NCBI GenBank assembly: GCA_964016885.1
Contig: OZ024740.1
Location: 428,420,001 to 428,484,000, forward strand
Direction of reading: 5' to 3'
From: Eledone cirrhosa
Taxonomy: Eukaryota
Length of the DNA stretch: 64,000 nt
This document shows, piece after piece, positions 6,001 to 46,770 of the stretch; position 1 is the first letter of the stretch, and each line of letters starts with the position of its first letter. The notes under the pieces are model-generated. The model worked only from the letters and a program-made list of their open reading frames with translations. It ran no database searches and was not told the DNA's origin. The position numbers were made by a program, and so were the translations under genes.

Positions 6001-9000
6001 TCTTCTCTCTCTATCTTGGTCTTCTCTCTCTCGCTTGGTCTTCTCTCTCTCTCTCTTGGTCTTCTCTCACTCTCATGGATTTCTCTCACTCTCTTGGTCT
6101 TCTCTCACTCTCTTGGTCTTCACTCTCTCTCTTAGTCTTCTCTGTCTCTCTTGGTCTTCACTCACTCTCTTGGTCTTCTCTCACTCTCTTGGTCTTCTCT
6201 CTCTCTCTTGGTGTTCTCTCATTCTCATGGTCTTCTCTCTCTCTTTTGGTCTTCACTCGCTCTCCCGATCTTCACTCACTCTCTTGCAGTTCACTCACTC
6301 TCTTGGTCTTCCCTCACTCTCTTGGTCTTCTCTCACTCTCTTGGTCTTCTCTCTCTCTCTCTTGGTCTTCTCTCACTCTCTTGGTCTTCTCTCACTCTCT
6401 TGGTATTCTCTCTCTCTATCTTGGTTTTCTCTCTCTCTTGGTCTTCTCTTACTCTCTCGGTCCTCTCTCTCTTTCTTCGTCTTCTCTCACTCTGTTTGCC
6501 TTTTCTCTTTCTCTCTCTTGGTCTTCTCTCACTCTCTCTCGGTCTTCTCTCACTCTCTTGGTCTTCCCCCACTCTCTTGGTATCCTCTCTCACTCTTGGT
6601 CTTCTCTCTGTCTCTTGGTCTTTTCTCACTCTCTTGGTCTTCTCTCTCTCTCCTGGTCTTTTCTCACTCTCTTGGTCTTCTCTCTCTCTCTTGGTCTTCT
6701 CTCACTCTCTTTGTCTGCTCTCTCTCTTTCTCTCTTGGTCTTCCCTATCTCTCTTGGTCTTCACTCTCTCTCCATTGTTCTTCACTCACTCTCTTGGTTT
6801 TCTCTGACTCTCTTGGTCTTCTCTCTCTCTCATGGTCTTCTCTCACTCTCTTGGTCTCTCTCTCTCTCTTGGTCTTCTCTCACTCTCTTGGTCTGCTCTC
6901 TCTCTCTCTCTTGGTCTTCTCTCTCTCGCTTGGTCTTCACTCTCTCTCCATTGGTCTTCACTCACTCTCTTGGTTTTCTTTCACTCTTTTGTGCTTCTCA
7001 CACTCTCTTGGTCTTCTCTCTCTCCCTTGGTCTGCTCTCTCGCTCATGGTCTTCTCTCTTTCTCTCTTGGTCTTCTCTCTCTATATTGGTCTTCTCTCTC
7101 TCTCTTGGTCTTCTCTCTCTCTCTCTTGGTCTGCTCTCACTCTCTTGGTCTGCTCTCTCTCTCTTGGTCTGCACTCTCTCTCTTGGTCTTCTCTCTCTCT
7201 CTTGGTCTTCTCTCTCTCTCTTGGTCTTCTCTCACTCTCTTGGTCTTCTCTTTCTCTCTTGGTCTTCTCTCACTCTCTTGGTCTGCTCTTTCTCTCTTGG
7301 TCTGCTCTCTCTCTCTTGGTCTGCACTCTCTCTCCTGGTCAGCTCTCGCTCTCTTGGTCTTCTCTCTCTCTTGGTCTTTTCTCACTCTCTTGGTCTTCTC
7401 TCAACCTCTTGGTCTTCTCTCTATCTCTTGTTTTTCTATCACTCTCTTGGTCTTCTCTCTCTCTCTTGGTCTTCTCTCTCTATCTTGGTCTTCTCTCTCT
7501 CTCTTGGTCTTCTCTCTCTCTTGGTCTGCTCTCTCGCTCTCTTTGTCTTCCCTCTCTCTCTTGGTCTTCTCTCTCTCTCTCTTGGTCTTCCCTCTCTCTC
7601 TTGGTCTTCTCTCTCTCTCTTGATCTTCTCTCTCTCTCTTGGTCTTCTCTCTCTCTCTTGGTCTTGTCTCTCTCTCTTGGTCTTCTCTCTCTATATTGGT
7701 CTTCTCTCTCTCTCTTGGTCTTCTCTCTCTCTCTCTTGATCTTCTCTCTCTCTCTTGGCCTTCTCTCACTCTCTTGGTCTTCAATCTCTCTCTTGGTCTT
7801 CTCTCACTCTCTTGGTCTGCTCTCTCTCTCTCTATTGGTCTTCACTCTCTCTCTTGGCCTACACTCTCTCTCCATTGGTATTCACTCACTCTCTTGGTTA
7901 ATTCTGACTCTCTTGGTCTTCTCTCTCTCTCTCTTGGTCTTCTCTCACTCTCTTGGTCTTCTCTCTCTCTCTTGGTCTTATCTCACTCTCTTGGTCTGCT
8001 CTCTCTCTTGGTCTTCTCTCTCTCTTGGTCTTCACTCTCTCTCCATTGGTGTTCACTCACTCTCTTGGTTTTCTCTCACTCTCTTGGTATTCTCACACTC
8101 TCTTGGTCTTCTCTCTCTCTCTCTTGGTCTTCTCTCACTCTCTTGGTCTGCTCTCTCTCTCTCTCTTGGTCTTCTCTCTCTCGCTTGGTCTTCACTCTCT
8201 CTCCATTGGTCTTCACTCACTCTCTTGGTTTTCTTTCACTCTTTTGTGCTTCTCACACTCTCTTGGTCTTCTCTCTCTCCCTTGGTCTGCTCTCTCGCTC
8301 ATGGTCTTCTCTCTTTCTCTCTTGGTCTTCTCTCTCTATATTGGTCTTCTCTCTCTCTCTTGGTCTTCTCTCTCTCTCTCTTGGTCTGCTCTCACTCTCT
8401 TGGTCTGCTCTCTCTCTCTTGGTCTGCACTCTCTCTCTTGGTCTTCTCTCTCTCTCTTGGTCTTCTCTCTCTCTCTTGGTCTTCTCTCACTCTCTTGGTC
8501 TTCTCTTTCTCTCTTGGTCTTCTCTCACTCTCTTGGTCTGCTCTTTCTCTCTTGGTCTGCTCTCTCTCTCTTGGTCTGCACTCTCTCTCCTGGTCAGCTC
8601 TCGCTCTCTTGGTCTTCTCTCTCTCTTGGTCTTTTCTCACTCTCTTGGTCTTCTCTCAACCTCTTGGTCTTCTCTCTAACTCTTGTTTTTCTATCACTCT
8701 CTTGGTCTTCTCTCTCTCTCTTGGTCTTCTCTCTCTATCTTGGTCTTCTCTCTCTCTCTTGGTCTTCTCTCTCTCTTGGTCTGCTCTCTCGCTCTCTTGG
8801 TCTTCCCTCTCTCTCTTGGTCTTCTCTCTCTCTCTCTTGGTCTTCCCTCTCTCTCTTGGTCTTCTCTCTCTCTCTCTCTTGATCTTCTCTCTCTCTCTTG
8901 GTCTTCTCTCTCTCTCTTGGTCTTGTCTCTCTCTCTTGGTCTTCTCTCTCTATATTGGTCTTCTCTCTCTCTCTTGGTCTTCTCTCTCTCTCTCTTGATC

Positions 9001-12000
9001 TTCTCTCTCTCTCTTGGCCTTCTCTCACTCTCTTGGTCTTCAATCTCTCTCTTGGTCTTCTCTCACTCTCTTGGTCTGCTCTCTCTCTCTCTATTGGTCT
9101 TCACTCTCTCCCTTGGCCTACACTCTCTCTCCATTGGTATTCACTCACTCTCTTGGTTAATTCTGACTCTCTTGGTCTTCTCTCTCTCTCTCTTGGTCTT
9201 CTCTCACTCTCTTGGTCTTCTCTCTCTCTCTTGGTCTTATCTCACTCTCTTGGTCTGCTCTCTCTCTTGGTCTTCTCTCTCTCTTGGTCTTCACTCTCTC
9301 TCCATTGGTGTTCACTCACTCTCTTGGTTTTCTCTCACTCTCTTGGTATTCTCACACTCTCTTAGTCTTCTCACTCTCTTGGTCTGCTCTCTCGCTCTTG
9401 GTCTTCTCTCTCTCTCTCTTGGTCTGCTCTCTCTCTCTCTTGGTCTTCTCTCACTCTCTTGGTCTGCTCTCTCTCTCTCTCTTGGTCTTCTCTTTCTCTC
9501 TTGGTCTTCTCTCTCTCTCTCTCTTAGTCTGCTCTCTCTCTCTTGGTCTTCTCTCTCTCTCTTGATCTGCTCTCTCTCTCTCTTAGTCTTCTCTCACCCT
9601 CTTGGTCTGCTCTCTCTCTTTGGGCTTCTCTCTCTATCTTGGTCTTCTCTCTCTCTCTTGGTCTTCTCTCTCTCTCTTGGTCTGCTCTCCTGCTCTTGGT
9701 CTTCTCCCTCTCTTTAGGTCTTCTCTCTCTATCTTGGTATTCTCTCACTCTCTTGGTCTTCTCTCTCTCTCTTGGTCTTCTCTCACTCTCTTGGTCTGCT
9801 CTCTCTCTCTTGGTCTTCACTCACTCTCTTGGTCTTCTCTCTCTCTCTTGGTATGCTCTCTCTCTTGGTATTATCTCTCTCTCTTGGTCTGCTCTCTCTC
9901 TCTTGGTCTTCTCTCACTCTCTTGGTCTGCTCTCTCTCTCTTGGTCTTCTCTTTCTCTCTTGGTCTTCTCTCACTCTCTTGGTCTGCTCTCTCTCTCTCT
10001 CTCTTAGTCTTTTCTCACTCTCTTAGTCTGCTCTCTCTCTCTCTTGGTCTGCTCTCTCTCTCTCTTGGTCTTCTCTCTCTCTTGGTCTGCTCTCTCTCTC
10101 TTGGTCTTCTCACACTCTCTTGGTCTTCTCTCACTCTCTTGGACTTCACTCACTCTCTTGGTCTTCTCTCACTCTCTTGGTCTTCTCTCACTCTCTTGGT
10201 CTTCTCTCTCTCTCTCTTGGTCTTCTCTCACTCTCTTGGTCTTCTCTCTCTCTCTTAGTATGCTCTCTCTCTTGGTCTTCTCTCTCTCTCTTGGTCTGCT
10301 CTCTCTCTCTTGGTCTTCTCTAACCCTCTTGGTCTGCTCTCTCTCTTTGGGCTTCTCTCTCTATCTTGGTCTTCTCTCTCTCTCTTGGTCTTCTCTCTCT
10401 CTCTTGGTCTGCACTCCTGCTCTTGGTCTTCTCCCTCTCTCTAGGTCTTCTCTCTCTATCTTGGTATTCTCTCACTCTCTTGGTCTTCTCTCTATCTCTC
10501 TTGGTCTTCTCTCACTCTCTTGGTCTTCTCTCTCTTGGTCTTCTCTCACTCTCTTGGTCTTCTCTTTCTCTCTTGGTCTTCTCTCTCTCTCTTGGTCTGC
10601 TCTCTCTCTCTCTCTCTTAGTCTTTTCTCACTCTCTTGGTCTGCTCTCTCTCTCTCTCTTGTTCTGCTCTCTCTCTCTTGGTCTTCTCTCTCTCTCTTGG
10701 TCTGCTCTCTCTCTCTTAGTCTTCTCTCACCCGCTTGTTCTGCTCTCTCTCTCTTGGGCTTCTCTCTCTCTATTGGTCTTCTCACACTCTCTTGGTCTTC
10801 TCTCTCTCTCTTGGTCTGCTCTCTCGCTCTTGGTCTTTTCTCTCTCTCTTGGTCTTCTCTCTCTATCTTGGTCTTCTCTCTCTCCCTTGGTCTTCTCTCT
10901 CTCTCTTGGTCTTCTCTCACTCTCTTGGTCTGCTCTCTCTCTCTTGGGCTGCACTCTCTCTCATGGTCTTCTCTCTCTCTCTTGGTTTCTCTCTCTCTCT
11001 TGGTCTTCTCTCACTCTCTTGGTCTTCTCTCTATCTCTTGTTTTTCTATCACTCTCTTGGTCTTCTCTCTCTCTTCGTCTTCTCTCTCTATCTTTGTCTT
11101 CTCTCTCTCGCTTGGTCTTCTCTCTCTCTCTCTTGGTCTTCTCTCACTCTCATGGATTTCTCTCACTCTCTTGGTCTTCTCTCACTCTCTTGGTCTTCAC
11201 TCTCTCTCTTAGTCTTCTCTGTCTCTCTTGGTCTTCACTCACTCTCTTGGTCTTCTCTCACTCTCATGGATTTCTCTCACTCTCTTGGTCTTCTCTCACT
11301 CTCTTGGTCTTCACTCTCTCTCTTAGTCTTCTCTGTCTCTCTTGGTCTTCACTCACTCTCTTGGTCTTCTCTCTCTCTCTTGGTGTTCTCTCATTCTCAT
11401 GGTCTTCTCTCTCTCTTTTGGTCTTCACTCGCTCTCCCGGTCTTCACTCACTCTCTTGCAGTTCACTCACTCTCTTGGTCTTCTCTCACTCTCTTGGTCT
11501 TCTCTCACTCTCTTGGTCTTCTCTCTCTCTCTCTTGGTCTTCTCTCACTCTCTTGGTCTTCTCTCACTCTCTTGGTATTCTCTCTCTCTATCTTGGTTTT
11601 CTCTCTCTCTTGGTCTTCTCTTACTCTCTCGGTCCTCTCTCTCTTTCTTCGTCTTCTCTCACTCTGTTTGCCTTTTCTCTCTCTCTCTCTTGGTCTTCTC
11701 TCACTCTCTCTCGGTCTTCTCTCACTCTCTTGGTCTTCCCCCACTCTCTTGGTATCCTCTCTCACTCTTGGTCTTCTCTCTGTCTCTTGGTCTTTTCTCA
11801 CTCTCTTGGTCTTCTCTCTCTCTCCTGGTCTTTTCTCACTCTCTTGGTCTTCTCTCTCTCTCTTGGTCTTCTCTCACTCTCTTTGTCTGCTCTCTCTCTT
11901 TCTCTCTTGGTCTTCCCTATCTCTCTTGGTCTTCACTCTCTCTCCATTGGTCTTCACTCACTCTCTTGGTTTTCTCTGACTCTCTTGGTCTTCTCTCTCT

Positions 12001-15000
12001 CTCATGGTCTTCTCTCACTCTCTTGGTCTTCTCTCTCTCTCTCTTGGTCTTCTCTCACTCTCTTGGTCTGCTCTCTCTCTCTCTCTTGGTCTTCTCTCTC
12101 TCGCTTGGTCTTCACTCTCTCTCCATTGGTCTTCACTCACTCTCTTGGTTTTCTTTCACTCTTTTGTGCTTCTCACACTCTCTTGGTCTTCTCTCTCTCC
12201 CTTGGTCTGCTCTCTCGCTCATGGTCTTCTCTCTTTCTCTCTTGGTCTTCTCTCTCTATATTGGTCTTCTCTCTCTCTCTTGGTCTTCTCTCTCTCTCTC
12301 TTGGTCTGCTCTCACTCTCTTGGTCTGCTCTCTCTCTCTTGGTCTGCACTCTCTCTCTTGGTCTTCTCTCTCTCTCTTGGTCTTCTCTCTCTCTCTTGGT
12401 CTTCTCTCACTCTCTTGGTCTTCTCTTTCTCTCTTGGTCTTCTCTCACTCTCTTGGTCTGCTCTTTCTCTCTTGGTCTGCTCTCTCTCTCTTGGTCTGCA
12501 CTCTCTCTCCTGGTCAGCTCTCGCTCTCTTGGTCTTCTCTCTCTCTTGGTCTTTTCTCACTCTCTTGGTCTTCTCTCAACCTCTTGGTCTTCTCTCTATC
12601 TCTTGTTTTTCTATCACTCTCTTGGTCTTCTCTCTCTCTCTTGGTCTTCTCTCTCTATCTTGGTCTTCTCTCTCTCTCTTGGTCTTCTCTCTCTCTTGGT
12701 CTGCTCTCTCGCTCTCTTGGTCTTCCCTCTCTCTCTTGGTCTTCTCTCTCTCTCTCTTGGTCTTCCCTCTCTCTCTTGGTCTTCTCTCTCTCTCTCTTGA
12801 TCTTCTCTCTCTCTCTTGGTCTTCTCTCTCTCTCTTGGTCTTGTCTCTCTCTCTTGGTCTTCTCTCTCTATATTGGTCTTCTCTCTCTCTCTTGGTCTTC
12901 TCTCTCTCTCTCTTGATCTTCTCTCTCTCTCTTGGCCTTCTCTCACTCTCTTGGTCTTCAATCTCTCTCTTGGTCTTCTCTCACTCTCTTGGTCTGCTCT
13001 CTCTCTCTCTATTGGTCTTCACTCCCTCCCTTGGCCTACACTCTCTCTCCATTGGTATTCACTCACTCTCTTGGTTAATTCTGACTCTCTTGGTCTTCTC
13101 TCTCTCTCTCTTGGTCTTCTCTCACTCTCTTGGTCTTCTCTCTCTCTCTTGGTCTTATCTCACTCTCTTGGTCTGCTCTCTCTCTTGGTCTTCTCTCTCT
13201 CTTGGTCTTCACTCTCTCTCCATTGGTGTTCACTCACTCTCTTGGTTTTCTCTCACTCTCTTGGTATTCTCACACTCTCTTGGTCTTCTCTCTCTCTCTC
13301 TTGGTCTTCTCTCACTCTCTTGGTCTGCTCTCTCTCTCTCTCTTGGTCTTCTCTCTCTCGCTTGGTCTTCACTCTCTCTCCATTGGTCTTCACTCACTCT
13401 CTTGGTTTTCTTTCACTCTTTTGTGCTTCTCACACTCTCTTGGTCTTCTCTCTCTCCCTTGGTCTGCTCTCTCGCTCATGGTCTTCTCTCTTTCTCTCTT
13501 GGTCTTCTCTCTCTATATTGGTCTTCTCTCTCTCTCTTGGTCTTCTCTCTCTCTCTCTTGGTCTTCTCTCACTCTCTTGGTCTTCTCTTTCTCTCTTGGT
13601 CTTCTCTCACTCTCTTGGTCTGCTCTTTCTCTCTTGGTCTGCTCTCTCTCTCTTGGTCTGCACTCTCTCTCCTGGTCAGCTCTCGCTCTCTTGGTCTTCT
13701 CTCTCTCTTGGTCTTTTCTCACTCTCTTGGTCTTCTCTCAACCTCTTGGTCTTCTCTCTATCTCTTGTTTTTCTATCACTCTCTTGGTCTTCTCTCTCTC
13801 TCTTGGTCTTCTCTCTCTATCTTGGTCTTCTCTCTCTCTCTCTTGGTTTTCTCTCTCTCTTGGTCTGCTCTCTCGCTCTCTTGGTCTTCCCTCTCTCTCT
13901 TGGTCTTCTCTCTCTCTCTCTTGGTCTTCTCTCTCTCTCTTGGTATGCTCTCTCTCTTGGTCTTATCTCTCTCTCTTGGTCTGCTCTCTCTCTCTTGGTC
14001 TTCTCTCACTCTCTTGGTCTGCTCTCTCTCTCTTGGTCTTCTCTTTCTCTCTTGGTCTTCTCTCACTCTCTTGGTCTGCTCTCTCTCTCTCTCTCTTAGT
14101 CTTTTCTCACTCTCTTAGTCTGCTCTCTCTCTCTCTTGGTCTGCTCTCTCTCTTGGTCTTCTCTCTCTCTTGGTCTGCTCTCTCTCTTGGTCTTCTCTCT
14201 CTCTTGGTCTTCTCACACTCTCTTGGTCTTCTCTCACTCTCTTGGACTTCACTCACTCTCTTGGTCTTCTCTCACTCTCTTGGTCTTCTCTCACTCTCTT
14301 GGTCTTCTCTCTCTCTCTCTTGGTCTTCTCTCACTCTCTTGGTCTTCTCTCACTCTCTTGGTATTCTCTCTCTCTATCTTGGTTTTCTCTCTCTCTTGGT
14401 CTTCTCTCACTCTCTCGGTCCTCTCTCTCTCTCTTTGTCTTCTCTCACTCTGTTTGCCTTTTCTCTCTCTCTCTCTTGGTCTTCTCTCACTCTCTCTCGG
14501 TCTTCTCTCACTCTCTTGGTCTTCCCCCACTCTCTTGGTATCCTCTCTCACTCTTGGTCTTCTCTCTCTCTCTTGGTCTTTTCTCACTCTCTTGGTCTTC
14601 TCTCACTCTCTTGGTATCCTCTCACTCTCTTGGTCTGCTCTCTCTCTCTCTCTCTCTTGGTCTTCCCTATCTCTCTTGGTCTTCACTCTCTCTCCATTGG
14701 TCTTCACTCACTCTCTTGGTTTTCTCTGAGTCTCTTGATCCTCTCTCTCTCTCATGGTCTTCTCTCACTCTCTTGGTCTTCTCTCTCTCTCTCTTGGTCT
14801 TCTCTCACTCTCTTGGTCTGCTCTCTCTCTCTCTCTCTTGGTCTTCACTCACTCTCTTGGTTTTCTTTCACTCTTTTGGTCTTCTCACACTCTCTTGGTC
14901 TTCTCTCTCTCCCTTGGTCTGCTCTCTCGCTCTTGGTCTTCTCTCTCTCTCTCTTGGTCTTCTCTCTATATATTGGTCTTCTCTCTCTCTCTTGGTCTTC

Positions 15001-18000
15001 TCTCTCTCTCTCTTGGTCTTCTCTCACTCTCTTGGTCTTCTCTCTCTCTCTTGGTCTTCTCTCTCTATCTTGGTCTTCTCTCTCTATCTTGGTCTTCTCT
15101 CTCTCCCTTGGTCTTCTCTCTCTCTCTCTTGGTCTTCTCTCACTCTCTTGGTCTGCTCTCTCTCTCTCTTGGTCTGCACTCTCTATCATGGTCTTCTCTC
15201 TCTCTTGGTCTTCTCTCTCTATCTTGGTCTTCTCTCTCTCTCTCTTGCTCTTCTCTCACTCTCATGGTTTCCTCTCACTCTCTTGGTCTTCTCTCACTCT
15301 CTTGGTTTTCACTCTGTCTCTTAGTCTTCTCTGTCTCTCTTGGTCTCCACTCACTCTCTTGGTCTTCTCTCACTCTCTTGGTCTTCTCTCTCTCTCTCTT
15401 GGTCTTCTCTCTCTATCTTGGTCTTCTCTCTCTCTCTTCGTCTTCTCTCACTCTCTTGGTCTTCTCTCTCTCTCTTGGTCTTCTCTCACTCTCATGGTCT
15501 TCTCTCTCTCTTTTGGTCTTCACTCACTCTCCCGGTCTTCACTCACTCTCTTGGTCTTCACTCACTCTCTTGGTCTTCTCTCACTCTCTTGTTCTTCTCT
15601 CACTCTCTTGGTCTTCTCTCTCTCTCTCTTGGTCTTCTCTCACTCTCTTGGTCTTCTCTCACTCTCTTGGTATTCTCTCTCTCTATCTTGGTTTTCTCTC
15701 TCTCTTGGTCTTCTCTCACTCTCTTGGTCTACTCTCTCTCTCTTGGTCTGCACTCTCTCTCTTGGTCTTCTCTCTCTCTCTTGGTCTTCTCTCACTCTCT
15801 TGGTCTGCTCTCTCGCTCTTGGTCTTCTCTCTCACTCTCTTGGTCTTCTCTCTCTATCTTGGTATTCTCTCACTCTCTTGGTCTTCTCTCTCTCTTGGTC
15901 TTCTCTCTCTCTCTTGAATCTTCTCTCTCTCTCTTTGTCTTCTCTCACTCTCTTGGTATTCTCTCTCTCTCTTGGTCTTCTCTCACTCTCTTGGTCTTCT
16001 CTCTCTCTCTTTTGGTCTTCTCTCACTCTCTTGGTCTTCACTCACGCTCTTGGTTTTCTCTCTCTCTCTTCGTCTTCACTCACTCTCTTGGTCTTCTCTC
16101 ACCCTCTTGGTCTTCTCTCACTCTCTTGGTCTTCTCTCTCTCTCTTTGTCTGCTCTCTCTCTTGGTCTTCTCTCTCTCTCTCTTGGTCTGCTCTCTCTCT
16201 CTTGGTCTTCTCTCACTCTCTTGGTCTGTTCTCTCTCTCTTGGTCTTCTCTTTCTCTCTTGGTCTTCTCTCTCTCTCTCTTGGTCTGCACTCTCTCTCTC
16301 TCTTAGTCTGCCTCTCTCTCTTGGTCTTCTCTCTCTCTCTTGATCTGCTCTCTCTCTCTCTTAGTCTTCTCTCACCCTCTTGGTCTTCTCTCTCTCTCTT
16401 GGTCTGCTCTCCTGCTCTTGGTCTTCCCCCTCTCTCTAGGTCTTCTCTCTCTATCTTGGTATTCTCTCACTCTCTTGGTCTTCTCTCTCTCTCTCTTGGT
16501 CTTCTCTCACTCTCTTGGTCTTCTCTCTCTTGGTCTTCTCTCACTCTCTTGGTCTTCTCTCACTCTCTTGGTCTTCTCTCTCTCTCTTGGTCTTCCCTCT
16601 CTCTCTTGGTCTTCACTCACTCTCTTGGTCTGCTCTCTCTCTCTTGGTCTTCACTCACTCTCTTGGTCTTCTCTCTCTCTCTTGGTATGCTCTCTCTCTT
16701 GGTCTTCTCTCTCTCTCTTGGTCTGCTCTCTCTCTCTCTCTCTTAGTCTTTTCTCACTCTCTTGGTCTGCTCTCTCTCTCTCTTCGTCTGCTCTCTCTCT
16801 CTCTTGGTCTTCTCTCTCTCTCTTGGTCTGCTCTCTCTCTCTTAGTCTTCTCTCACCCGCTTGTTCTGCTCTCTCTCTCTTGGGCTTCTCTCTCTCTATT
16901 GGTCATCTCACACTCTCTTGGTCTTCTCTCTCTCTCTTGGTCTGCTCTCTCGCTCTTGGTCTTCTCTCTCTCTCTTGGTCTTCTCTCTCTATCTTGGTCT
17001 TCTCTCTCTCCCTTGGTCTTCTCTCTCTCTCTCTTGGTCTTCTCTCACTCTCCTGGTCTGCACTCTCTCTCTTGGGCTGCACTCTCTCTCATGGTCTTCT
17101 CTCACCCTCTTGGTCTGCTCTCTCTCTTTGGGCTTCTCTCTCTATCTTGGTCTTCTCTCTCTCTCTTGGTCTTCTCTCTCTCTCTCTCTTGGTCTGCTCT
17201 CCTGCTCTTGGTCTTCTCCCTCTCTCTAGGTATTCTCGCTCTATCTTGGTCTGCTCTCTCGCTCTTGGTCTTCTCTCTCTCTCTTGGTCTTCTCTCTCTA
17301 TCTTGGTCTTCTCTCTCTCCCTTAGTCTTCTCTCTCTCTCTTGGTCTTCTCTCACTCTCTTGGTCTGCTCTCTCTCTCTTGGGCTGCACTCTCTCTCATG
17401 GTCTTCTCTCTCTCTCTTGGTCTTCTCTCTCTCTCTTGGTCTTCTCTCACTCTCTTGGTCTTCTCTCTATCTCTTGTTTTTCTATCACTCTCTTGGTCTT
17501 CTCTCTCTCTCTCTTCGTCTTCTCTCTCTATCTTGGTCTTCTCTCTCTCGCTTGGTCTTCTCTCTCTCTCTCTTGGTCTTCTCTCACTCTCATGGATTTC
17601 TCTCACTCTCTTGGTCTTCTCTCACTCTCTTGGTCTTCACTCTCTCTCTTAGTCTTCTCTGTCTCTTTTGGTCTTCACTCACTCTCTTGGTCTTCTCTCA
17701 CTCTCTTGGTCTTCTCTCTCTTGGTCTTCTCTCATTCTCATGGTCTTCTCTCTCTCTTTTGGTCTTCACTCACTCTCCCGGTCTTCACTCACTCTCTTGG
17801 ACTTCACTCACTCTCTTGGTCTTCTCTCACTCTCTTGGTCTTCTCTCACTCTCTTGGTCTTCTCTCTCTCTCTCTTGGTCTTCTCTCACTCTCTTGGTCT
17901 TCTCTCACTCTCTTGGTATTCTCTCTCTCTATCTTGGTTTTCTCTCTCTCTTGGTCTTCTCTCACTCTCTCGGTCCTCTCTCTCTCTCTTTGTCTTCTCT

Positions 18001-19900
18001 CACTCTGTTTGCCTTTTCTCTCTCTCTCTCTTGGTCTTCTCTCACTCTCTCTCGGTCTTCTCTCACTCTCTTGGTCTTCCCCCACTCTCTTGGTATCCTC
18101 TCTCACTCTTTGTCTTCTCTCTCTCTCTTGGTCTTTTCTCACTCTCTTGGTCTTCTCTCTCTCTCTTGGTCTTCTCTCACTCTCTTGGTCTGCTCTCTCT
18201 CTCTCTCTCTTGGTCTTCCCTATCTCTCTTGGTCTTCACTCTCTCTCCATTGGTCTTCACTCATTCTCTTGGTTTTCTCTGACTCTCTTGGTCTTCTCTC
18301 TCTCTCATGGTCTTCTCTCACTCTCTTGGTCTTCTCTCTCTCTCTTGGTCTTCTCTCACTCTCTTGGTCTGCTCTCTCTCTCTCTCTTGGTCTTCTCTCT
18401 CTCTCTTGGTCTTCACTCTCTCTCCATTGGTCTTCACTCACTCTCTTGGTTTTCTTTCACTCTTTTGGTCTTCTCACACTCTCTTGGTCTTCTCTCTCTC
18501 TCCCTTGGTCTGCTCTCTCGCTCTTGGTCTTCTCTCTCTCTCTCTTAGTCTTCACTCTCTATATTTGTCTTCTCTCTCTCTCTTGGTCTTCTCTCTCTCT
18601 CTCTTGGTCTTCTCTCACTCTCTTGGTCTGCTCTCTCTCTCTTGGTCTGCACTCTCTCTCTTGGTCTTCTCTCTCTCTCTTGTTCTTCTCTCTCTCTCTT
18701 GGTCTTCTCTCACTCTCTTGGTCTTCTCTTTCTCTCTTGGTCTTCTCTCACTCTCTTGGTCTTCTCTCTCTCTCTTGGTATGCTCTCTCTCTTGGTCTTC
18801 TCTCTCTCTCTTGGTCTGCTCTTTCTCTCTTGGTCTGCTCTCTCTCTCTTGGTCTGCACTCTCTCTCCTGGTCAGCTCTCGCTCTCTTGGTCTTCTCTCT
18901 CTCTTGGTCTTTTCTCACTCTCTTGGTCTTCTCTCACCCTCTTGGTCTTCTCTCTATCTCTTGTTTTTGTATCACTCTCTTGGTCTTCTCTCTCTCTCTT
19001 GGTCTTCTCTCTCTATCTTGGTCTTCTCTCTCTCTCTTGGTCTTCTCTCTCTCTTGGTCTGCTCTCTCGCTCTCTTGGTCTTCCCTCTCTCTCTTGGTCT
19101 TCTCTCTCTCTCTCTTGGTCTTCCCTCTCTCTCTTGGTCTTCTCTCTCTCTCTCTTGATCTTCTCTCTCTCTCTTGGTCTTCTCTCACTCTCTTGGTCTT
19201 CTCTCTCTCTCTTGGTCTTCTCTCTCTATATTGGTCTTCTCTCTCTCTCTTGGTCTTCTCTCTCTCTCTCTTGATCTTCTCTCTCTCTCTTGGTCTTCTC
19301 TCACTCTCTTGGTCTTCTCTCTCTCTCTCTTGGTCTTCCCTCTCTCTCTTGGTCTTCTCTCTCTCTCTCTTGATCTTCTCTCTCTCTCTTGGTCTTCTCT
19401 CACTCTCTTGGTCTTCTCTCTCTCTCTCTTGGTCTTCTCTCACTCTCTTGGTCTTCTCTCACTCTCTTGGTCTTCTCTCTCTCTCTTGGTCTTCTCTCAC
19501 CCTCTTGGTCTTCTCTCACTCTCTTGGTCTTCTCTCTCTTTCTTGGTCTTACTCACTCTCTTGGTCTTCTCTCTCTCTCTTGGTCTTCTGTCACCCTCTT
19601 GGTCTTCTCTCACTCTCTTGGTCTTCTCTCTCTTTCTTGGTCTTCCCTCTCTCTCTTGGTCTTCTCTCACTCTCTTGGTCTTCTCTCACTCTCTTGGTCT
19701 TCTCTCTCTTTCTTGGTCTTCACTCACTCTCTTGGTCTTCTCTCACCCTCTTGGTCTTCTCTCACTCTCTTGGTCTTCTCTCACTCTCTTGGTGTTCACT
19801 CACTCTCTTGGTCTTCTCTCACTCTCTTGGTCTTCTCTCACTCTCTTGGTGTTCACTCACTCTCTTGGTCTTCACTCACTCGCTTAGTCTCCACTCTCTC
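1..19900. repeat. Large pyrimidine-rich satellite: CTTGGTCTT/CTTGGTCTG spaced by variable (CT)n, unit about 16-26 bp, with kb-scale higher-order duplications
   Basis: Continuous (CT)n-TGGTCTT units from the window start. Identical ORF translations recur at offsets 2325 (3143/5468), 1255 (7137/8392), 5078 (5468/10546) and 5175 (7137/12312). Confidence 0.97.
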
Positions 19901-19943
19901 TATTTAGGGGGGAGTAAGTGCTCCGCCCCGTTGGAGAAACACG

Positions 19944-21751: not shown

Positions 21752-21930
21752 TTGTTTCTACTTTTGGCACAAGGCCAGCAATTATCCCAGTATATTACTG
21801 GTACTTTATTTATCGACCCCGTAAGAATGAAAGGCAAAGTGAACCTCGGCGGGATTTGAACTCAGAACGCAAAGGGCCATAACTCTATACTACAAAGCAT
21901 GGTGTCTGACGCTCTAACCACTCTACCATT
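21752..21930 (-). mobile_element. tRNA-derived SINE (family S1); its 5' head runs into the 29-bp array
   Basis: Minus strand has the B-box GAGTTCAAATCC, then CGCCGAGGT..ACTTTGCCTTTCAT..GGGGTCGATAAA..GTACCAGT and the tail GCTGGCCTTGTGCCAAAAGTAGAAAC. At least 9 copies occur in the window. Confidence 0.88.
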
Positions 21931-23095
21931 CTATCCGACGTTCTAACCACTCTACCATTCTATCTGACGTTCTAACCACTCTACCATTCTATCCGACGTT
22001 GTAACCGCTCTACCATTCTATCTGACGTTCTAACGACTCTACCATTCTATCTGACTGTCTAACCACTCTACCATTCTATCCGACGTTCCAACCACTCTAC
22101 CATTCTATCCGACGTTCTAACGACTCTACCATTCTATCTGACTGTCTAACCACTCTATCATTCTATCCGACGTTCTAACCACTCTACCATTCTATCCGAC
22201 GTTCTAACCACTCTACCATTCTATCTGACTGTCTAACCACTCTATCATTCTATCCGACGTTCTAACCACTCTACCATTCTATCCGACGTTCTAACCACTC
22301 TACCATTCTATCTGACGTTCTAACGACTCTACTATTCTATCTGACGTTCTAACGAATCTACCATTCTGTCCGACGTTCTAACAACTCTACCATTCTATCT
22401 GACGTTCTAGCCACTCTACCATTCTATCTGACGTTCTAACAATTCTACCATTCTATCTGACGTTCTAACAACTCTGCCATTCTATCTGACGTTCTAACAA
22501 CTCTACCATTCTATCTGACGTTCTAGCCACTCTACCATTCTATCTGACGTTCTAACAATTCTACCATTCTATCTGACGTTCTAACAACTCTGCCATTCTA
22601 TCTGACGTTCTAACAACTCTGCCATTCTATCTGACGTTCTAACAACTCTACCATTCTATCTGACGTTCTAACCACGCTACCATTCTATCTGACGTTCTAA
22701 CAATTCTACCATTCTATCTGTCGTTCTAACAACTCTGCCATTCTATCTGACGTTCTAACAACTCTACCATTCTATCTGACATTCTAACCACTCTACCATT
22801 CTATCTGATATTCTAATCACTCTACCATTCTATCTGACGTTCTAACAACTCTACCATTCTATCTGACGTTCTAACCACTCTACCATTCTATCTGACGTTC
22901 TAGCAACTCTACCATTCTATCTGACGTTCTAACAACTCTACCATTCTATCTGACGTTCTAGCAACTCTACCATTCTATCTGACGTTCTAACAACTCTACC
23001 ATTCTATGTGACATTCTAACCACTCTACCATTCTATCTGACGTTCTAAGAACTATACCATTCTATGTGACGTTCTAACGACTCTACTAGTTTGAC
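21908..23095. repeat. 29-bp minisatellite (GACGTTCTAACCACTCTACCATTCTATCY), 40 full units plus one partial, derived from the SINE head
   Basis: Unit starts at 21908, 21937 ... 23068 (1160 = 40 x 29). The reverse complement contains the A-box-like TGGTAGAGTGG. Confidence 0.95.
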
Positions 23096-34336: not shown

Positions 34337-35014
34337 CGGGATAACACTCAGGTATAGATTTATATACATATAAGTTTTGACAACTATTTGATTAGAAAAT
34401 CCTTCGAAACCGTGTGAGTGTGTTTACGTATGTGTGTGTATATGTGTATGAATGCGTGCATGTGTGTGTACGGACGTGTGTGTGTGTGGACGTGTCTGTG
34501 TATGTGGACGTGTGTGCGACGTGTGTGTGTTTTGTCAAAGATATACATATCAGAAATGTCATTTATCTCCGAGTTTATTAACGATTAGTCCCTGGAGCCT
34601 TTAAAGTGGCTTAAATATTTCGGTGATTTCCGTCATTCCTGCAACAAATGTGGGGGGTTTACAATGGAAGATTAAGGGATGTAACAAAAAAGAAAAGAAA
34701 AAATATAAATATAAAAAAAAGAAAAGAGAAAAAAGAAGGATAGGAAAATATAATGAAAACAATAATATTAAATATATAATGAAAAGAATGAAGATAAAAA
34801 TGATCTCTCTTCGGAACTCCGTCTTGGTGAGTTCGATCAAAGATTGTTTTACTGTTGTTGCTAGAATAGAAGCAAAAGTTGACAGAGATGAGATTGTTAA
34901 ACTATGAGAAAAGTAAATATAAACATTGTTTGTCTGTGTTTTTACATTTGAGAATAGCCTGAAGATGGTGAAGATGGTACCTTGTTAAGGCAGTTCTGTA
35001 TGGTCTATGTAGGT

Positions 35015-37712
35015 GAGGGTGTGTATGTTGTGTCGTGTGAGGGTGTGTCTGTTGTGTTGTGTGAGGGTGTGTCTGTTGTGTTGTGTGAGGGTGTGTCTGT
35101 TGTGTCGTGTGAGGGTGTTTCTGTTGTGTTGTGTGAGGGTGTTTCTGTTGTGTTGTGTGAGGGTGTGTCGTGTGAGGGTATGTCTGTTGTGTCGTGTGAG
35201 GGTGTGTCTGTTGTGTCGTGTGAGGGTGTTTCTGTTGTGTTGTGTGAGGGTGTGTCTGTTGTGTTGTGTGAGGGTGTGTCTGTTGTGTCGTGTGAGGGTG
35301 TTTCTGTTGTGTTGTGTGAGGGTGTGTCGTGTGAGGGTATGTCTGTTGTGTCGTGTGAGGGTGTGTCTGTTGTGTCGTGTGAGGGTGTTTCTGTTGTGTT
35401 GTGTGAGGGTGTGTCTGTTGTGTCGTGTGAGGGTGTGTCGTGTGAGGGTATGTCTGTTGTGTCGTGTGAGGGTGTGTCTGTTGTGTCGTGTGAGGGTGTG
35501 TCTGTTGTGTTGTGTGAGGGTGTGTCTGTTGTGTTGTGTGGGTGTGTGTCTGTTGTGTTGTGTGAGGGTGTGTCTGTTGTGTCGTGTGAGGGTGTGTCTG
35601 TTGGGTTGTGTGAGGGTATGTCTGTTGTGTTGTGTGGGGGTGTGTCTGTTGTGTTGTGTGGGGGTGTGTCTGTTGTGTTGTGTGAGGGTGTGTCTGTCGT
35701 GTCGTGTGAGGGTGTGTCGTGTGAGGGTATGTCTGTTGTGTCGTGTGAGGGTGTGTCTGTTGTGTCGTGTGAGGGTGTGTCTGTTGTGTTGTGTGAGGGT
35801 GTGTCTGTTGTGTTGTGTGGGTGTGTGTCTGTTGTGTTGTGTGAGGGTGTGTCTGTTGTGTCGTGTGAGGGTGTGTCGTGTGAGGGTATGTCTGTTGTGT
35901 CGTGTGAGGGTGTGTCTGTCGTGTCGTGTGAGGGTGTGTCTGTTGTGTTGTGTGAGGGTGTGTCTGTTGTGTTGTGTGGGTGTGTGTCTGTTGTGTTGTG
36001 TGAGGGTGTGTCTGTTGTGTCGTGTGAGGGTGTGTCGTGTGAGGGTGTGTCTGTTGTGTTGTGTGAGGGTGTGTCTGTTGTGTCGTGTGAGGGTGTGTCT
36101 GTTGTGTTGTGTGAGGGTCTGTCTGTTGTGCTGTGTGAGGGTGTGTCTGTTGTGCTGTGTGAGGGTGTGTCTGTTGTGTCGTGTGAGGGTGTGTCTGTTG
36201 TGTTGTGTGAGGGTGTGTTGTGTGAGGGTGTGTCTGTTGTGTTGTGTGAGGGTGTGTCTGTTGTGTTGTGTGAAGTTGTGTCTGTTGTGTCGTGTGAGGG
36301 TGTGTCTGTTGTGTTCTGTGTCTGTTGTGTCGTGTGAGGGTGTGTCTGTTGTGTTGTGTGAGGGTGTGTCTGTTGTGTTGTGTGTGTGTGTGGGGGGGTG
36401 TCTGTTGTGTTGTGTGAGGGTGTGTCTGTTGTGTCGTGTGACGGTGTGTCTGTTGTGTTGTGTGGGTGTGTGTCTGTTGTGTTGTGTGAGGGTGTGTCTG
36501 TCGTGTCGTGTGAGGGTGTGTCGTGTGAGGGTATGTCTGTTGTGTCGTGTGAGGGTATGTCTGTTGTGTTGTATCGGGGTGTGTCTGTTGTATTGTGTGA
36601 GGGTGTGTCTGTTATGTTGTGCGACTGTGTGTCTGTTGTGTTGTGTGAGAGTGTGTCTGTTGTGTGGTGCGACTGTGTGTCTGTTGTGTTGTATGTCTGT
36701 TGTGTTGTGTGAGGGTGTGTCTGTTGTGTGTCTGTTGTGTCGTGGGAGGGTGTGTCTGTTGTGTGGTGCGACTGTGTGTCTGTTGTGTTGTGTGTCTGTT
36801 GTGTTGTGGGAGGGTGTGTCTGTTGTGTGGTGCGACTGTGTGTCTGTTGTGTTGTGTGTCTGTTGTATTGTTTGAGGGTGTGTCTGTTGTGTGGTGCGAC
36901 TGTGTGTCTGTTGTGTTGTGTGTATGTTGTGTTGTGTGAGGGTGTGTCTGTTGTGTTGTGTGAGGGTGTGTCTGTTGTGTGGTGCGACTGTGTGCCTGTT
37001 GTGTTGTGTGTCTGTTGTGTCGTGGGAGGGTGTGTCTGTTGTGTGGTGCGACTGTGTGTCTGTTGTGTTGTGTGTCTGTTGTGTTGTGGGAGGGTGTGTC
37101 TGTTGTGTGGTGCGACTGTGTGTCTGTTGTGTTGTGTGTCTGTTGTATTGTTTGAGGGTGTGTCTGTTGTGTGGTGCGACTGTGTGTCTGTTGTCTTGTG
37201 TGTCTGTTGTGTTGTGTGAGGGTGTGTCTGTTGTGTGGTGCGACTGTGTGTCTGTTGTGTTGTGTGTCTGTTGTGTTGTGTGAGGGTGTGCCTGTTGTGT
37301 GGTGCGACTGTGTGTCTGTTGTGTTGTGTGTCTGTTGTGTCGTGTGAGAGTGTGTCTGTTGTGTGGTGCGACTGTGTGTCTGTTGTCTTGTGTGTCTGTT
37401 GTGTTGTGTGAGGGTGTGTCTGTTGTGTGGTGCGACTGTGTGTCTGTTGTGTTGTGTGTCTGTTGTGTCGTGGGAGGGTGTGTCTGTTGTGTGGTGCGAC
37501 TGTGTGTCTGTTGTGTTGTGTGTCTGTTGTGTTGTGTGAGGGTGTGTCTGTTGTGTGTTGCGACTGTGTGTCTGTTGTGTTGTGTGTCTGTTGTGTCGTG
37601 TGAGAGTGTGTCTGTTGTGTGGTGCGACTGTGTGTCTGTTGTCTTGTGTGTCTGTTGTGTCGTGTGAGAGTGTGTCTGTTGTGTGGTGCGACTGTGTGTC
37701 TGTTGTGTTGTG
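35015..37712. repeat. TG-rich minisatellite: 24-bp unit (GAGGGTGTGTCTGTTGTGTYGTGT) changing to a 64-bp unit after about 36.7 kb
   Basis: 8-aa periodicity (EGVSVV[S/L]C) in the ORF track; the GGTGCGAC marker recurs every 64 bp from 36981 to 37685 (one copy varies). Confidence 0.95.
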
Positions 37713-37925
37713 TGTGTGAGTATGCTGTATTGTGTTTGTGTAAATGTGTGGTGTGTGTGTGCGTATTGTGTGTGGTGTGTGTTTGTGTGTATGCATGAGT
37801 GTGTGTGTTGTATGTGTAAGTGTGGCGTGCGTGTGTTTGTGTTTGTCTGTACGAGATTATTTGGTCGCTCGTCTGAGAAAATGAAGATCGATTCGACCTG
37901 ACAAGACATCCGACTTCTTCTAGCT

Positions 37926-40962: not shown

Positions 40963-43657
40963 TAGCGGAGCTACCCGGCTTCGCTCAGTGTTAAAAAGCT
41001 TATTTAGAAAAGAATAATATTAACATTTTAATCGTTATTTAAAAACTTCTGTAATTTAGTTTCTATTTTTTAGATTTTAACATTTATCTTTAAATGACTG
41101 AATGACTGACGAATTTAAAGAAAATTCGTTATAAGAACATTTAATTTGTTTTACTGAAGTGCTTTTGGATACACAATGTTTTTTGTTTTTCCTTCTGGTG
41201 CGTACACGAATAAATCAGAAGGTTTACCGACGCGTGAGCACGCCACATACAGCTGTCCATGTGAGAAGCATGGATTTTCTAAATTTAGTCCACACACTTG
41301 TAGCGATTGTCCTTGTGCTTTGTTAATAGTCATTGCAAAGGCGAGTCGCACCGGAAACTGTAAACGTTTGAAATCGAATGGCGTATCTGTTGGAATGATT
41401 GGGATGCGTGGCAAGAGTACATCTTCTCCTTTAAATTTTCCATTTAAAATTGTAGCCTCGATGATATTGTTCATCGTCTTTTTCACTGAAAGTCTGGTAC
41501 CGTTGCAAAGTTGTGGTGGATTGATGTTTCGGAGAAGGATGATAGGCACGCCAATTTTCAATGTTAAAATGTGCGGTGGCATGCCTGGCAAATCAAGTGA
41601 ATTCAAGAATTCAATTGGATAATTGATAATTTCGTCTTGATTCATTACAGTATCGATGGACTTATACGTTGTCGCTTCGCCTGGTATTTCGTTTTGAATG
41701 CTGAAATTAATGGCATTGACATCGGTGTTTTTGGCTGCTAATATAGCACGTACACTGAGCCACTGATGATTTTTGTAATGCTGCGCAATATTTGGGAACA
41801 CTTTGTGAATCAGTTCGTCTCTGGTTGCCGTGATTCTACAGAAGTTTGTTGGCAATGTGATACATTTTGTGGAATCATCGATTACCATTTTCCCATTCCC
41901 AATATCCAGCAATTGTTTTGTGAAACGTTCAGCGGATGCGTCATTTTGTAGTTGTACACGCATATTGTTTTTAAAGTTAATTTCTGTACGTGTCGCCATA
42001 AAACTGATGATTTGAGACATGCATTAAGCTCATCAGCGGGTGTTGATCGCGGTATAACTGGTAGAGTTTGTCGAAAATCACCAGACAATAAAATGAGTGT
42101 GCCACCGAAGAGCTGTTCATTTCCTTTCAAATCTTTTAGCGTATTATTAAGCGCTTCCAATGATTTTTTGTGCGCCATAGTACATTCGTCCCATATAATG
42201 ATTTTACATGATTGGAGTACTTTACCTATACCAGAATTTTTGGTAATATTGCATGTTGATGTCTCAGCGATTTGCATATTCAATGGCAATTTCAGGGCTG
42301 AATGTGTTGTTCGGCCACCATCTAAAAGAGTTGCCGCAATTCCAGATGATGCGATTGCCAGTGCAATATTATTTTCTGATCGTATAGTTGCTAAAATAAG
42401 TGAAATGAGAAAACGTTTGCCTGTACCACCGGGCGCATCTATAAAATACAATCCGCCGCTTTGACTTATAATTGCCTGCATAATTTGGTCATATACTATG
42501 CGTTGTTCTGGTAGCAATTTGGGAAGATTCGTTTGAACAAATGTACCCAATTCGGCGACATCAAATTTTGTTTCTTGTTGCAAATCACGATCGAAAATGT
42601 CGTTTACAGATCGATTCGGCGCAGGCATTCCCAATTGTACCAATGTTTTGTTAGCGATTGCTAAACATATGACCTCAATGGAAACCAATGCTTCATTATA
42701 CACATTTTGTGTGAATTGAATATTCATATTTTGATTTGTTGCACGCAAACGATGTAGGATATCTTCACTCATGTAGTCTTTATATTTTTCCCAAAGATCT
42801 TTTGGATTTGATGGGAAGCACGTTGTCCATATTATTGAGAATAATGTGCGTATTTGCTTTGGTCGAGCAGTATTCGATGCATCAGCGAGTGAAGTGTCCC
42901 AATGTCCATCATTTTCAAGAAGATTTAATTCTTGGCAAGCCTCACGATAAGTGGCACATACTTGACCGTTTACTGTTCTCAATTCTTGGAATGATGTCGG
43001 TCCACGTATGTGTCCAGGTCAGGAAAATAAGGACAGACGAAATGAAGATATCAAATTACAGCACTTAGTTAAGGGCTAGCTGAAAAAGAATTCCCTGTAA
43101 TGGGAGTGGAAGGGAAGTAATGTGAAACAGACACTATACTAATTCTATTGAAATTATATTAAATTAAAGAGAGAATTTACTAATTCTATTGAAATTATAT
43201 TAAATTAAAGAGAGAATACTAATTCTATTGAAATTATCTTTAATTATAAAAATTTCACACTAGCTCTTTCACTCACTCTTTGTCTATACGTTGATTTCTC
43301 TTTCTCCGTTTATAGCACTCTCTCTTTGTCTATACGTTGCTCTTTCACTCTCTCTTTGTCTATACGTTGATTTCTCTTTCTCCGTTTATAACTTTAGAGA
43401 CAGTCTAATATAGGGAGTGGTTCAAAGCAGCCAGACTACTCGCTCTTTCACTCGTTGCTCTTTCACTCTCTCTTTGTCTATACGTTGATTTCTCTTTCTC
43501 CGTTTATAACTTTAGAGACAGTCTAATATAGGGAGTGGTTCAAAGCAGCCAGACTACTCGCTCTTTCACTCTCTGTTTGAATATACGTTGATTTCTCTTT
43601 CTCCGTTTATATCTTTGGACAAACAAACAAACATACATTCATTTTTATATATATAGA
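40962..43657 (-). mobile_element. Helitron internal-deletion derivative (2.7 kb) retaining the helicase
   Basis: Minus strand starts A|TCTATATATATAAAAATG at 43657; hairpin CTGAGCGAAGCCGG; ends CTAG|T at 40962. Internal tandem repeats at 43137-43610. Confidence 0.93.
41151..43012 (-). pseudogene. Pif1-family (SF1B) helicase domain of Helitron RepHel, frameshifted, Rep domain missing
   Basis: DAPGGTGK, IIWDECTM, GDFRQTLPV, LCNGTRL, QFPVRLAFAMTINKAQGQS and FSHGQLYVACSRV. A one-base deletion near 41965 splits LTLKT/NMRV between two ORFs. Confidence 0.95.
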
Positions 43658-43773
43658 TATATATATGTAAGTAAGATGTATGGTAGGTCGTATGTGAATC
43701 GCGATGATCACGTCTGACTTACCAAATATGTGACGGTAGCTAGTTAAGCTCTATGCGTATACGCAGAGCAGAA

Positions 43774-44018
43774 ATATTAGTGAAAAAGAACAAAGGAACT
43801 ATTATGACATTATAACAAGTTTATTGCCGACAGCCGTTTCGTCCGACCCCATCAAGGCATATAACATGTGATTGCAAGATTGAGTGATACGTTGATGTAA
43901 ACAATGATCTTGCAATCACATGTTATATGCCTTGATAAGTCCCACCATGGGGTCGGACGAAACGGCTGTCGGCAATAAACTTGTTATAATGTCATAATAG
44001 TTCCTTTGTTCTTTTTCA

Positions 44019-44025
<7 letters not shown>
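43774..44025. repeat. Palindrome with ~110-bp arms and a 26-nt loop, hammerhead in each arm
   Basis: Arms are identical except that the left arm (motif remnant 43825-43859, minus) lacks AAGTCCCACCAT. Confidence 0.92.
43928..43974 (+). ncRNA. Intact type I hammerhead motif, variant core UUGAUAA (U3:A8), family F
   Basis: TGCC-TTGATAA-GTCC caccatggggtc GGAC-GAAAC-GGCT-GTC-GGCA, running into AATAAA. All three stems pair; GUC triplet; predicted cut after 43970. Confidence 0.87.
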
Positions 44026-44074
<49 letters not shown>

Positions 44075-44344
44075 TATGTGTATATATATATATACTCTCC
44101 TTGCTTTCATATTTCTCCTTGCTCCCCTTTTCTCATTATATTTGTAAATAAACAATTACATAGATGCAATGAGAAGAGGAGAGGAAGGAGAGAAGGAGAG
44201 CAAGGAGAGCAGGGATAAATGGAGAGCAAGGGGATAAAGAATCAAAGGAGAGCAAGGAGAGCAAGGAGAAAAGGAGAGCAAGGTAAGCAGAGGGGAAAGG
44301 AGAGCAAGGAGAGCAGGAATAAAAAAGGAGAGCAAGGAGAGCAA

Positions 44345-45534: not shown

Positions 45535-45656
45535 CTGCCCGCCCAGCCAGTGGGATGGCGTTATCTTATGACTAAAACAGCACGATGTGCTGTGACCAGC
45601 GGCGCCGAATGGACGCCCGACAGACTGGTTGGTCAAGGTGATATATATATATATAT

Positions 45657-46596
45657 ATTTATTAAAATAACAGATTAAAGTTTAAGCAAAGAATCGCTGC
45701 TTTCACCCTTAACGGGATCTTCTGAAACTAACAAAGTCAATCTGTAAACGCAGAAGTGGATATTTCAAAAAACGTTGCAACCGGAGGAAGACAGGAAGAC
45801 GATACTTTGCTTCGTGGAAACGTTCCCTGACAAAAACGAAGATAATACGTCATATGTGGAGCGTGGAGAACAATTGCACCAAAGACAAAACCACGTAAAA
45901 GGTATAGCTGAAGTCGTAGACTAAAATTCTAACTAGGAAACCGAATGATTCTCCGCTTCAGAGTTAAGAAAAAGGTAAATAAAATACAATACAGAGGTAA
46001 TAGAAATTAAATATAAGCATACACGCATGCAACTACGTACATACACAAGCATACGCAAAACACTTACCATAGGAATACAAAACCACGCACATATAAATAT
46101 GTGTGTGTGTGTGTGTGTGCGTGTATACAAATAAATAAATAATTAAATAAACATATATAAATAAATAAATACGTATATAACAAGCGCGCACACATACCTA
46201 CATGTAAATACACAAATGTTCGGAGACGTAAGTCAACCAAAACATGAAGTACATATGACGTATTATCTTCGTTTTTTCCGTTCATTGCCAGAGAACGTCT
46301 CTATGAACCACCTAAGAGAACATTAGTCTACGACTTCTTTTATACCATAAACGTCTTTGCGTGTAATTGTTTTTCACCGCTCCAAATAATGACGTATTAT
46401 ATTCGTTTTTTCCCGTTCTTTGCCAGGGAACGTTTCCACGAACCAAACTATCGTCTTCCTGTCTTCCTCCGGCTGCAACGTTTTTTGAAATATTTACTTC
46501 TGCGTTCACAGATTGACTTTGTTATTTTCAGAAGATCCCGTTAAGGGTGAAGGCAGTGATTCTTTGCTTAAACTTTAATCTGTTATTTTAATAAAT
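45657..46596. repeat. Inverted repeat with ~270-bp arms (45657-45925 / 46322-46596)
   Basis: Arms are diverged reverse complements; fragments of the same family occur at 23445-23530 and 29088-29138. Confidence 0.85.
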
Positions 46597-46770
46597 ATTT
46601 GCTCTACGGTTCTTATATATTTGATATATATTTATCCTTATCGAGCCCTCTTTGGATTTTAGTCTCCAAATTTATTATTATTACTATATATATATATTTA
46701 TAAAGCAAAATTCAACCAATTTTTAAAAATAAATTAAAAAATATAATATAAATATTTACCTCTTCTAATG

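Follow-up and report, generated by a model that had tools for sequence, protein, structure and literature searches.

A family-wide U3:A8 minimal hammerhead motif in a truncated insertion of a putative Hydra-clade Penelope-like element

Hammerhead ribozymes whose core has changed from C3:G8 to U3:A8 are known from several sources. Natural U3:A8 covariation was described in several hammerheads together with cited in vitro activity, obtained on other constructs (Perreault et al., 2011; PMC3088659). In Penelope-like elements (PLEs) the variant is reported from Cercyon elements, with about 1,300 matches in Schistosoma mansoni (Cervera and De la Pena, 2014; PMC4209133). Minimal PLE hammerheads showed no cutting in monomeric form, and dimers or trimers of them showed weak cutting (PMC4209133). 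The hammerhead of PAc (Poseidon of Anolis) needs protein, and a double swap at 3:8 partly rescues it (Frangieh et al., 2024; PMC11167929). In PAc, the one PLE tested in vitro, insertion is unaffected in ribozyme mutants, and RNA-seq reads ending at the cut site number 0. In Craig et al. (2021; PMC8557442), all 26 Hydra-clade rows of File S2 carry C3:G8, although the search descriptor presupposed the canonical core. The literature searched reports U3:A8 for neither Hydra nor Neptune elements, though the supplements of PMC4209133 and PMC3088659 may include such motifs from further clades; nor did that literature yield a cleavage rate for any U3:A8 PLE motif. The U3:A8 variant, its occurrence in PLEs, dimer dependence and the palindromic stub are all already described, and what is added here are putative Hydra-clade and Neptune-type examples beside the published Cercyon case.

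The window, that is, the whole analysed stretch of 64,000 nucleotides, holds at 43928-43974 (+) a motif that reads TGCC TTGATAA GTCC cACCatggGGTc GGAC GAAAC GGCT GTC GGCA. The features of the locus are as follows.

43668..43880, minus strand: left arm, an inverted, 5'-truncated copy of the same pLTR end as the right arm, with a 110-nt tail (long 3' end); by alignment.
43881..44021, plus strand: right arm, a pLTR 3' end with 5' truncation, from a putative Hydra-clade PLE; identical over this stretch to the pLTRs of a full-length copy (L034).
43774-43852 and 43947-44025: inverted repeat, 100%.
44022..44094, no strand: (TA)n microsatellite, likely the insertion target; from TRF, and 3' ends of the family run into (TA)n.
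43928..43974, plus strand: minimal type I hammerhead with U3:A8 core; from sequence, with an Rfam Hammerhead_1 match below gathering and 206 exact copies of 43932-43970.
43928-31 with 43971-74, plus strand: stem I, TGCC with GGCA, 4 bp; from sequence.
43932 onwards, plus strand: core, T43932 as position 3, then T G A T, A43937 as position 8, and A; from sequence.
43939-42 with 43955-58, plus strand: stem II, GTCC with GGAC, and 3 further bp beyond a C.C mismatch; from sequence.
43959-63 and 43968-70, plus strand: GAAAC and GTC, from sequence, with a predicted cut after C43970.
43962..43969, plus strand: stem III with loop 3, self-complementary ACGGCUGU, the predicted dimerization site (8-bp duplex between two copies).

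The UUGAUAA core, GAAA, GUC, the type I order and a Watson-Crick 3:8 pair are all present, with T43932 and A43937 in place of the canonical C3 and G8. An earlier note, made from the letters of this DNA, had described a TTGATAA core in which both C3 and G8 are changed, together with GAAAC, GUC and a predicted cut site at 43970, and the sequence bears this out. The same note held that all three stems pair, which holds for stems I and II but overstates the case for stem III. The latter consists of just an A-U and a C-G pair round a 4-nt loop, with pairing probabilities of 0.005 and 0.006 in the folded monomer, where stem I reaches 0.31-0.35 and stem II (4+3 bp) 0.84-0.86. The 47-mer folds no better than shuffles of itself (z 0.11). 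Overlooked at that stage was an inverted repeat of 107 bp, with the motif set in its right arm and a second, deleted copy in its left arm.

Because stem III has just 2 bp and a pairing probability of 0.005, the active fold is likely to need a dimer. The segment ACGGCUGU forms with itself a predicted 8-bp duplex of -9.7 kcal/mol (duplexfold), so that a type I motif, which is expected to have either a stable monomer stem III or a dimer palindrome, would here depend on the 8-nt self-complementary segment, the monomer being unstable. The lowest-energy homodimer (-38.9) has double-hammerhead geometry and shares its stems I (4-bp core), II and III with a hand-built dimer model (-38.5). The energy gain on dimerization, -8.7 kcal/mol, is not unusual, since 85 of 200 shuffles do as well, and for this family the geometry alone is therefore informative. 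For two further families treated below, C and B, shuffles equalled the dimer energy in 52/200 and 193/200 cases, and the lowest-energy dimer of family B is not a double hammerhead.

Rfam Hammerhead_1 (RF00163) matches 43927-43976 with 19 bits (E 0.062), below its gathering score of 34 bits, and the whole 64-kb window gave no Rfam match at gathering. The earlier note had argued that searches restricted to CUGANGA miss this motif. This holds by definition; the miss by Rfam is nevertheless not down to U3:A8 alone, as a C3:G8 motif in the same window goes without a gathering match too. miRNA-like Rfam matches that appear at relaxed E-value were rejected, as they reflect the inverted repeat and the (TA)n run. 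A second hammerhead-like motif lies at 26148 (-), right after a (TA)n run; its 3:8 pair is the canonical C3:G8, stem I has 6 bp and the loop of stem II is long. This motif has no Rfam gathering match, and has a relative with U3:G8 at another locus (L055).

The copies of the window motif define a family, here called family A. Its 39-nt core (43932-43970) has 206 exact genomic copies, while the same pattern with CTGATGA has none; reversed controls gave 0. With the seven core bases left free the genome holds 246 matches, and among the 100 listed, counted by eye, 89 read TTGATAA, U3 is present in 100/100, A8 in 99/100 and C3 in 0/100. The 30-nt flank downstream of the motif occurs 849 times. From the first 30 of these loci, 29 were displayed (L107 was left out) and 2 proved to be truncated before the core; all 27 that remain carry U3:A8, 23 of them tallied in register and 4 by eye. 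In the 23 in-register copies N7 is A in 12 and T in 11. Subfamily differences within the motif fall on N7 and loop 2, and the conserved core, including positions 3 and 8, is constant. When the pattern was loosened to accept C or T at position 3 together with A or G at position 8, 944 matches resulted, the first 100 listed comprising 99 with U3:A8, one with C3:G8 (an unrelated motif) and none with a mismatched pair. The segment 43895-44020 is found at 100% identity in at least 41 places, window included (949 candidates, 40 scored). U3:A8 is the state of the whole of family A and not decay, because 206 TTGATAA copies stand against no CTGATGA copy and the free-core and flank samples agree. The earlier note had proposed collecting genomic copies to learn whether this one is an outlier, and TTGATAA turned out to be the family consensus, with 0 copies of CTGATGA. 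One family A copy, at G000:C3:287048001, reads TTGATGG (A8G + A9G), possibly a trace of A-to-I editing.

Family A copies have their upstream sequence in common, truncated to varying extents, and their downstream ends pass into (TA)n at either of two positions. The full-length copy L034 comprises an inverted piece and a pLTR whose motif lies at 2084, then an ORF and a 3' region about 2.7 kb long, with the motif recurring at 7662; its ORF is split by a frameshift into pieces at 2319-4493 and 4436-4948. Two other copies (L142 and L143) have the same build, their two motifs lying 5.9 and 5.3 kb apart. In all three, hammerhead-bearing pLTRs flank an ORF for an RT followed C-terminally by a GIY-YIG endonuclease, as in EN+ PLEs, and no unbroken ORF was found among the long family A copies examined. 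The protein carries SLKNIP, RIRWR, SDKA (SDKT in L144), CNCRRKDKC (CxCX5C), CSLC (CxxC) and CPH (CxH). Read by eye, these correspond to the Hydra clade in having an RWK-like motif, DKA or DKT for DKG, the CxCX5C linker, CxxC with CxH and not CCHH, and a C-terminal endonuclease; insertion into (TA)n, another Hydra-clade trait, is seen at the fetched loci and in contigs of a public run. Pfam found 0 families in either protein tested, so that the domains were assigned by visual inspection of motifs. Family A thus appears to be a young Hydra-clade PLE, as judged by such motifs rather than by a tree. A homolog search with its protein returned 808 proteins among 7,995 scored; those listed are 34-45% identical, and the named homologs among them come from molluscs. 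Two features of L034 exceed the descriptions of Hydra elements, namely the long 3' region and a long low-complexity stretch rich in R, N and T (L034:3790-4140) between the RT thumb and the endonuclease linker.

Two other assignments were considered and dropped. The Naiad clade has an N-terminal GIY-YIG and no canonical hammerhead, and was set aside because the endonuclease of family A is C-terminal. Non-LTR retrozymes are non-coding tandem monomers of a few hundred bases; this identity was rejected, as the upstream sequence of family A leads into an RT-EN ORF in full-length copies and the window locus is a truncated stub. A further Hydra-like GIY-YIG endonuclease survives as a remnant in the window, at 32928-32482 (-); it shares 37% identity with that of family A, and no hammerhead was found within 3.5 kb downstream of it. 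Among other Hydra-like families, only one (L051/L109, L132) showed a candidate motif with C3:G8 downstream of the endonuclease, 1.0-1.6 kb on.

Of 27 inverted pairs of family A counted at the level of loci, 25 combine one long and one short end, and the other two are views of the internal junction of L034. Merged by coordinates they give 18 distinct palindromic insertions, of which two may be one duplicated event, and 18/18 have one long and one short end. This combination of 5' truncation, an inverted truncated partner and a tail at a single end is that of EN+ PLEs. Contigs of one public sample contain loose (AT)n ends at the same two 3'-end positions; the three public runs, represented by contigs of that one sample, which cannot show RNA ends, yielded no joints. 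A further locus (L144; G000:C2:219154101, 219159376) holds tandem family A units 5.3 kb apart, both with U4G hammerheads, beside an open stretch of 708 codons. Since this damaged pair adjoins a long ORF, it appears that core-damaged copies can be multiplied, possibly by local duplication.

Family A resembles the Cercyon elements (PMC4209133) in its U3:A8 type I motif in PLE pLTRs, the 4-bp stem I and long stem II, the palindromic stem III region, G10.1-C11.1, and the predominance of solo copies of truncated elements, some lying close together on opposite strands. It differs from them, as they are described there, in belonging by its motifs to the Hydra clade and in a hammerhead that retains two base pairs of stem III around a 4-nt loop and has no additional base between positions 9 and 10.1; family A is also very young and uniform, whereas the schistosome matches, roughly 1,300 in number, are heterogeneous. 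With the published Hydra clade (PMC8557442) it shares N-terminal SxKNIP and RW[KR], DK[AT], the CxCX5C linker, a C-terminal GIY-YIG with CxxC and CxH, (TA)n targets, the inverted 5'-truncated copy and the tail on a single end. In contrast to the 26 Hydra rows, which have C3:G8 under a canonical descriptor, family A has U3:A8; it also measures 5.3-5.9 kb from motif to motif, compared with a usual length below 3 kb, and contains the long RT-endonuclease insert. Its tail of 110 nt exceeds the 30-40 bp given for PLEs (PMC8557442). The covariation is the same as that of Perreault et al. (2011; PMC3088659), whose examples do not appear to concern dimerization-dependent retroelement motifs. In family A as in PAc (PMC11167929), the hammerhead lies where pLTR and ORF meet, and a pair of 3' ends past the cut site defines the tail; PAc, however, has C3:G8 and a motif that overlaps the start codon, whereas the first ATG of family A lies about 240 nt past the cut site.

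Taken together, these observations favour, with a probability of roughly 80%, the reading that a young Hydra-clade PLE carries this minimal type I hammerhead in its pLTR, that U3:A8 likely keeps function and cutting is likely to depend on a dimer or on protein, and that the window copy itself is predicted to be inert. Against this reading speak the unremarkable energy gain of the dimer, the equal decay of core positions in family C described below, the multiplied U4G pair of L144, and the unaffected insertion of ribozyme mutants in PAc. U3:A8 would preserve the tertiary 3:8 pair, as the literature indicates. By the folding prediction, two copies would pair through ACGGCUGU into a double hammerhead, the monomer having no stem III, and the cut after 43970 would likely take place only in the dimer or with protein help. 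Published minimal PLE hammerheads and PAc behave in this way, which is why slow, dimer- or protein-dependent cutting of tandem RNA is proposed; on the published picture, the ribozyme would process long tandem transcripts of the element slowly, and the element protein would prime reverse transcription on both ends of the cut target. Two internal RNA priming sites, located 51 and 161 nt beyond the point of cutting, could then give one short and one tailed end per insertion. The template would have to be uncleaved or re-ligated, because DNA copies run through the cut site. The one-tailed stub fits what is published on PLEs, both the single-end tail (PMC8557442) and the two internal priming sites (PMC11167929).

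The history of the variant was approached with a descriptor in which positions 3 and 8 were left free, run over 74 loci and the window. All repeated families it recovered have a Watson-Crick 3:8 pair, U3:A8 in families A, B and C and C3:G8 in the others, and 3:8 mismatches occurred just as single copies (L008, L055, L073). Family C, apparently a Neptune-type PLE, has 11,012 copies of a U3:A8 hammerhead, with U3 in 20/20 fetched loci (L081-L100). Its hammerhead contains a perfect ACCGGT palindrome, and short palindromic stubs lying in (TA)n account for many of the copies. One locus (L134:2717-5026) has a long open RT-EN frame with the Neptune-type motifs GLKF, DKG and a CX4CxxC linker, the family C motif lying behind it, and its protein is 22% identical to that of family A. 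Family B (L047, L068, L075-L080) is old and diverged, with U3:A8, a GUA cut site and a variable N7. It gave one match in the free-3:8 run and 8 copies by a pattern search; among these 8, N7 is A in 1, C in 3 and T in 4, loop 2 varies and the core is constant, under a pattern that fixed positions 3 and 8. No ORF tied to family B was found in the fetched loci. Because the U3:A8 of family C goes with a protein only 22% identical to that of family A, the comparison points to more than one origin of the swap. A single animal genome can thus hold roughly 12,000 U3:A8 motifs.

The covariation makes it likely that U3:A8 is under selection. A stronger proposal holds that it is a convergently selected, attenuated core state, adopted independently by Hydra and Neptune elements (here) and by Cercyon, in which slow dimer- or protein-dependent cleavage spares uncut template, and which in this genome would form a major core class of some 12,000 copies missed by canonical searches; as a whole we regard this as unlikely. 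It is also rather improbable that U3:A8 is the founder state of a vestigial or near-inactive ribozyme, carried along in the pLTR by an element that spreads without cleavage. Several published findings would suit such a passenger: hammerhead mutations leave PAc able to insert in vitro (PMC11167929), canonical hammerheads are absent from Naiads, which nonetheless proliferate (PMC8557442), and minimal hammerheads cut poorly even as dimers (PMC4209133). Genomic copies that continue past the cut site are compatible with it as well. Within family C, 59 copies are changed at position 3, 46 at position 7 and 43 at position 8, and none has C3 and G8 together; the mutant patterns differ slightly from the 11,012-copy pattern, so the ratio is approximate. 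A test for selection within this family accordingly gave no difference among positions 3, 7 and 8, and such equal decay is as expected from a founder state with neutral decay. Against a founder state stand the change of both partners with the Watson-Crick pair kept in three families whose stems are unrelated and of which two go with proteins only 22% identical, the confinement of mismatched pairs to single copies once 3 and 8 are left free, and the subfamily differences that hit N7 and loop 2 and spare the conserved core. The earlier assertion that the motif is a selected variant rather than decay is consequently upheld for decay (206 vs 0; 27/27), and in view of the equal decay in family C its selection is suggested rather than established.

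The preferred reading also covers the fate of the window copy. The locus is an ordinary truncated insertion of a putative Hydra-clade PLE with a real, family-wide U3:A8 minimal hammerhead. The right arm is a short 3' end, stopping 51 nt past the cut site, and TA-rich sequence also borders the left end of the insertion, at about 43646-43667. In the hammerhead of the left arm 12 nt of core and stem II are deleted between two AT dinucleotides, a junction seen nowhere else in the genome. With the inverted left arm added to the fold, the intact motif lies inside a 107-bp hairpin and every hammerhead stem has probability 0; as the left arm captures the motif in this way, no activity is predicted for the window copy when transcription comes from upstream. 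That it is instead an active monomeric ribozyme serving a host transcript is thus very improbable. The motif is indeed intact and the same as in full-length elements, yet stem III has a probability of 0.005 in the monomer, all stems fall to 0 beside the inverted arm, and the stub is without the upstream pLTR and ORF of the element. Its identity to many copies also argues for a recent insertion and not for a conserved host element.

There is next to no probability left for a decayed outlier of a canonical CUGAUGA family or a chance match, to which the Rfam score under gathering and a 47-mer fold equal to shuffles might have pointed, given 206 TTGATAA copies against 0 of CTGATGA with a reversed control of 0, C3 in 0/100 of the free-core matches listed, and U3:A8 in 27/27 flank-sampled copies.

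These young, homogeneous families offer material for measuring the effect of U3:A8 on cleavage and the role of cleavage in PLE mobility. The window holds other repeats as well. A perfect two-copy tandem repeat of 118 nt lies just upstream of the insertion (43335-43571), and a further inverted repeat of 195 nt, 91% complementary, spans 45655-45849 and 46404-46598. Large, strand-biased minisatellite arrays occupy 1-19901, 21905-23086, 35013-37714 and 54680-61977 of the window, with units of 19, 29, 24 and 55 nt.
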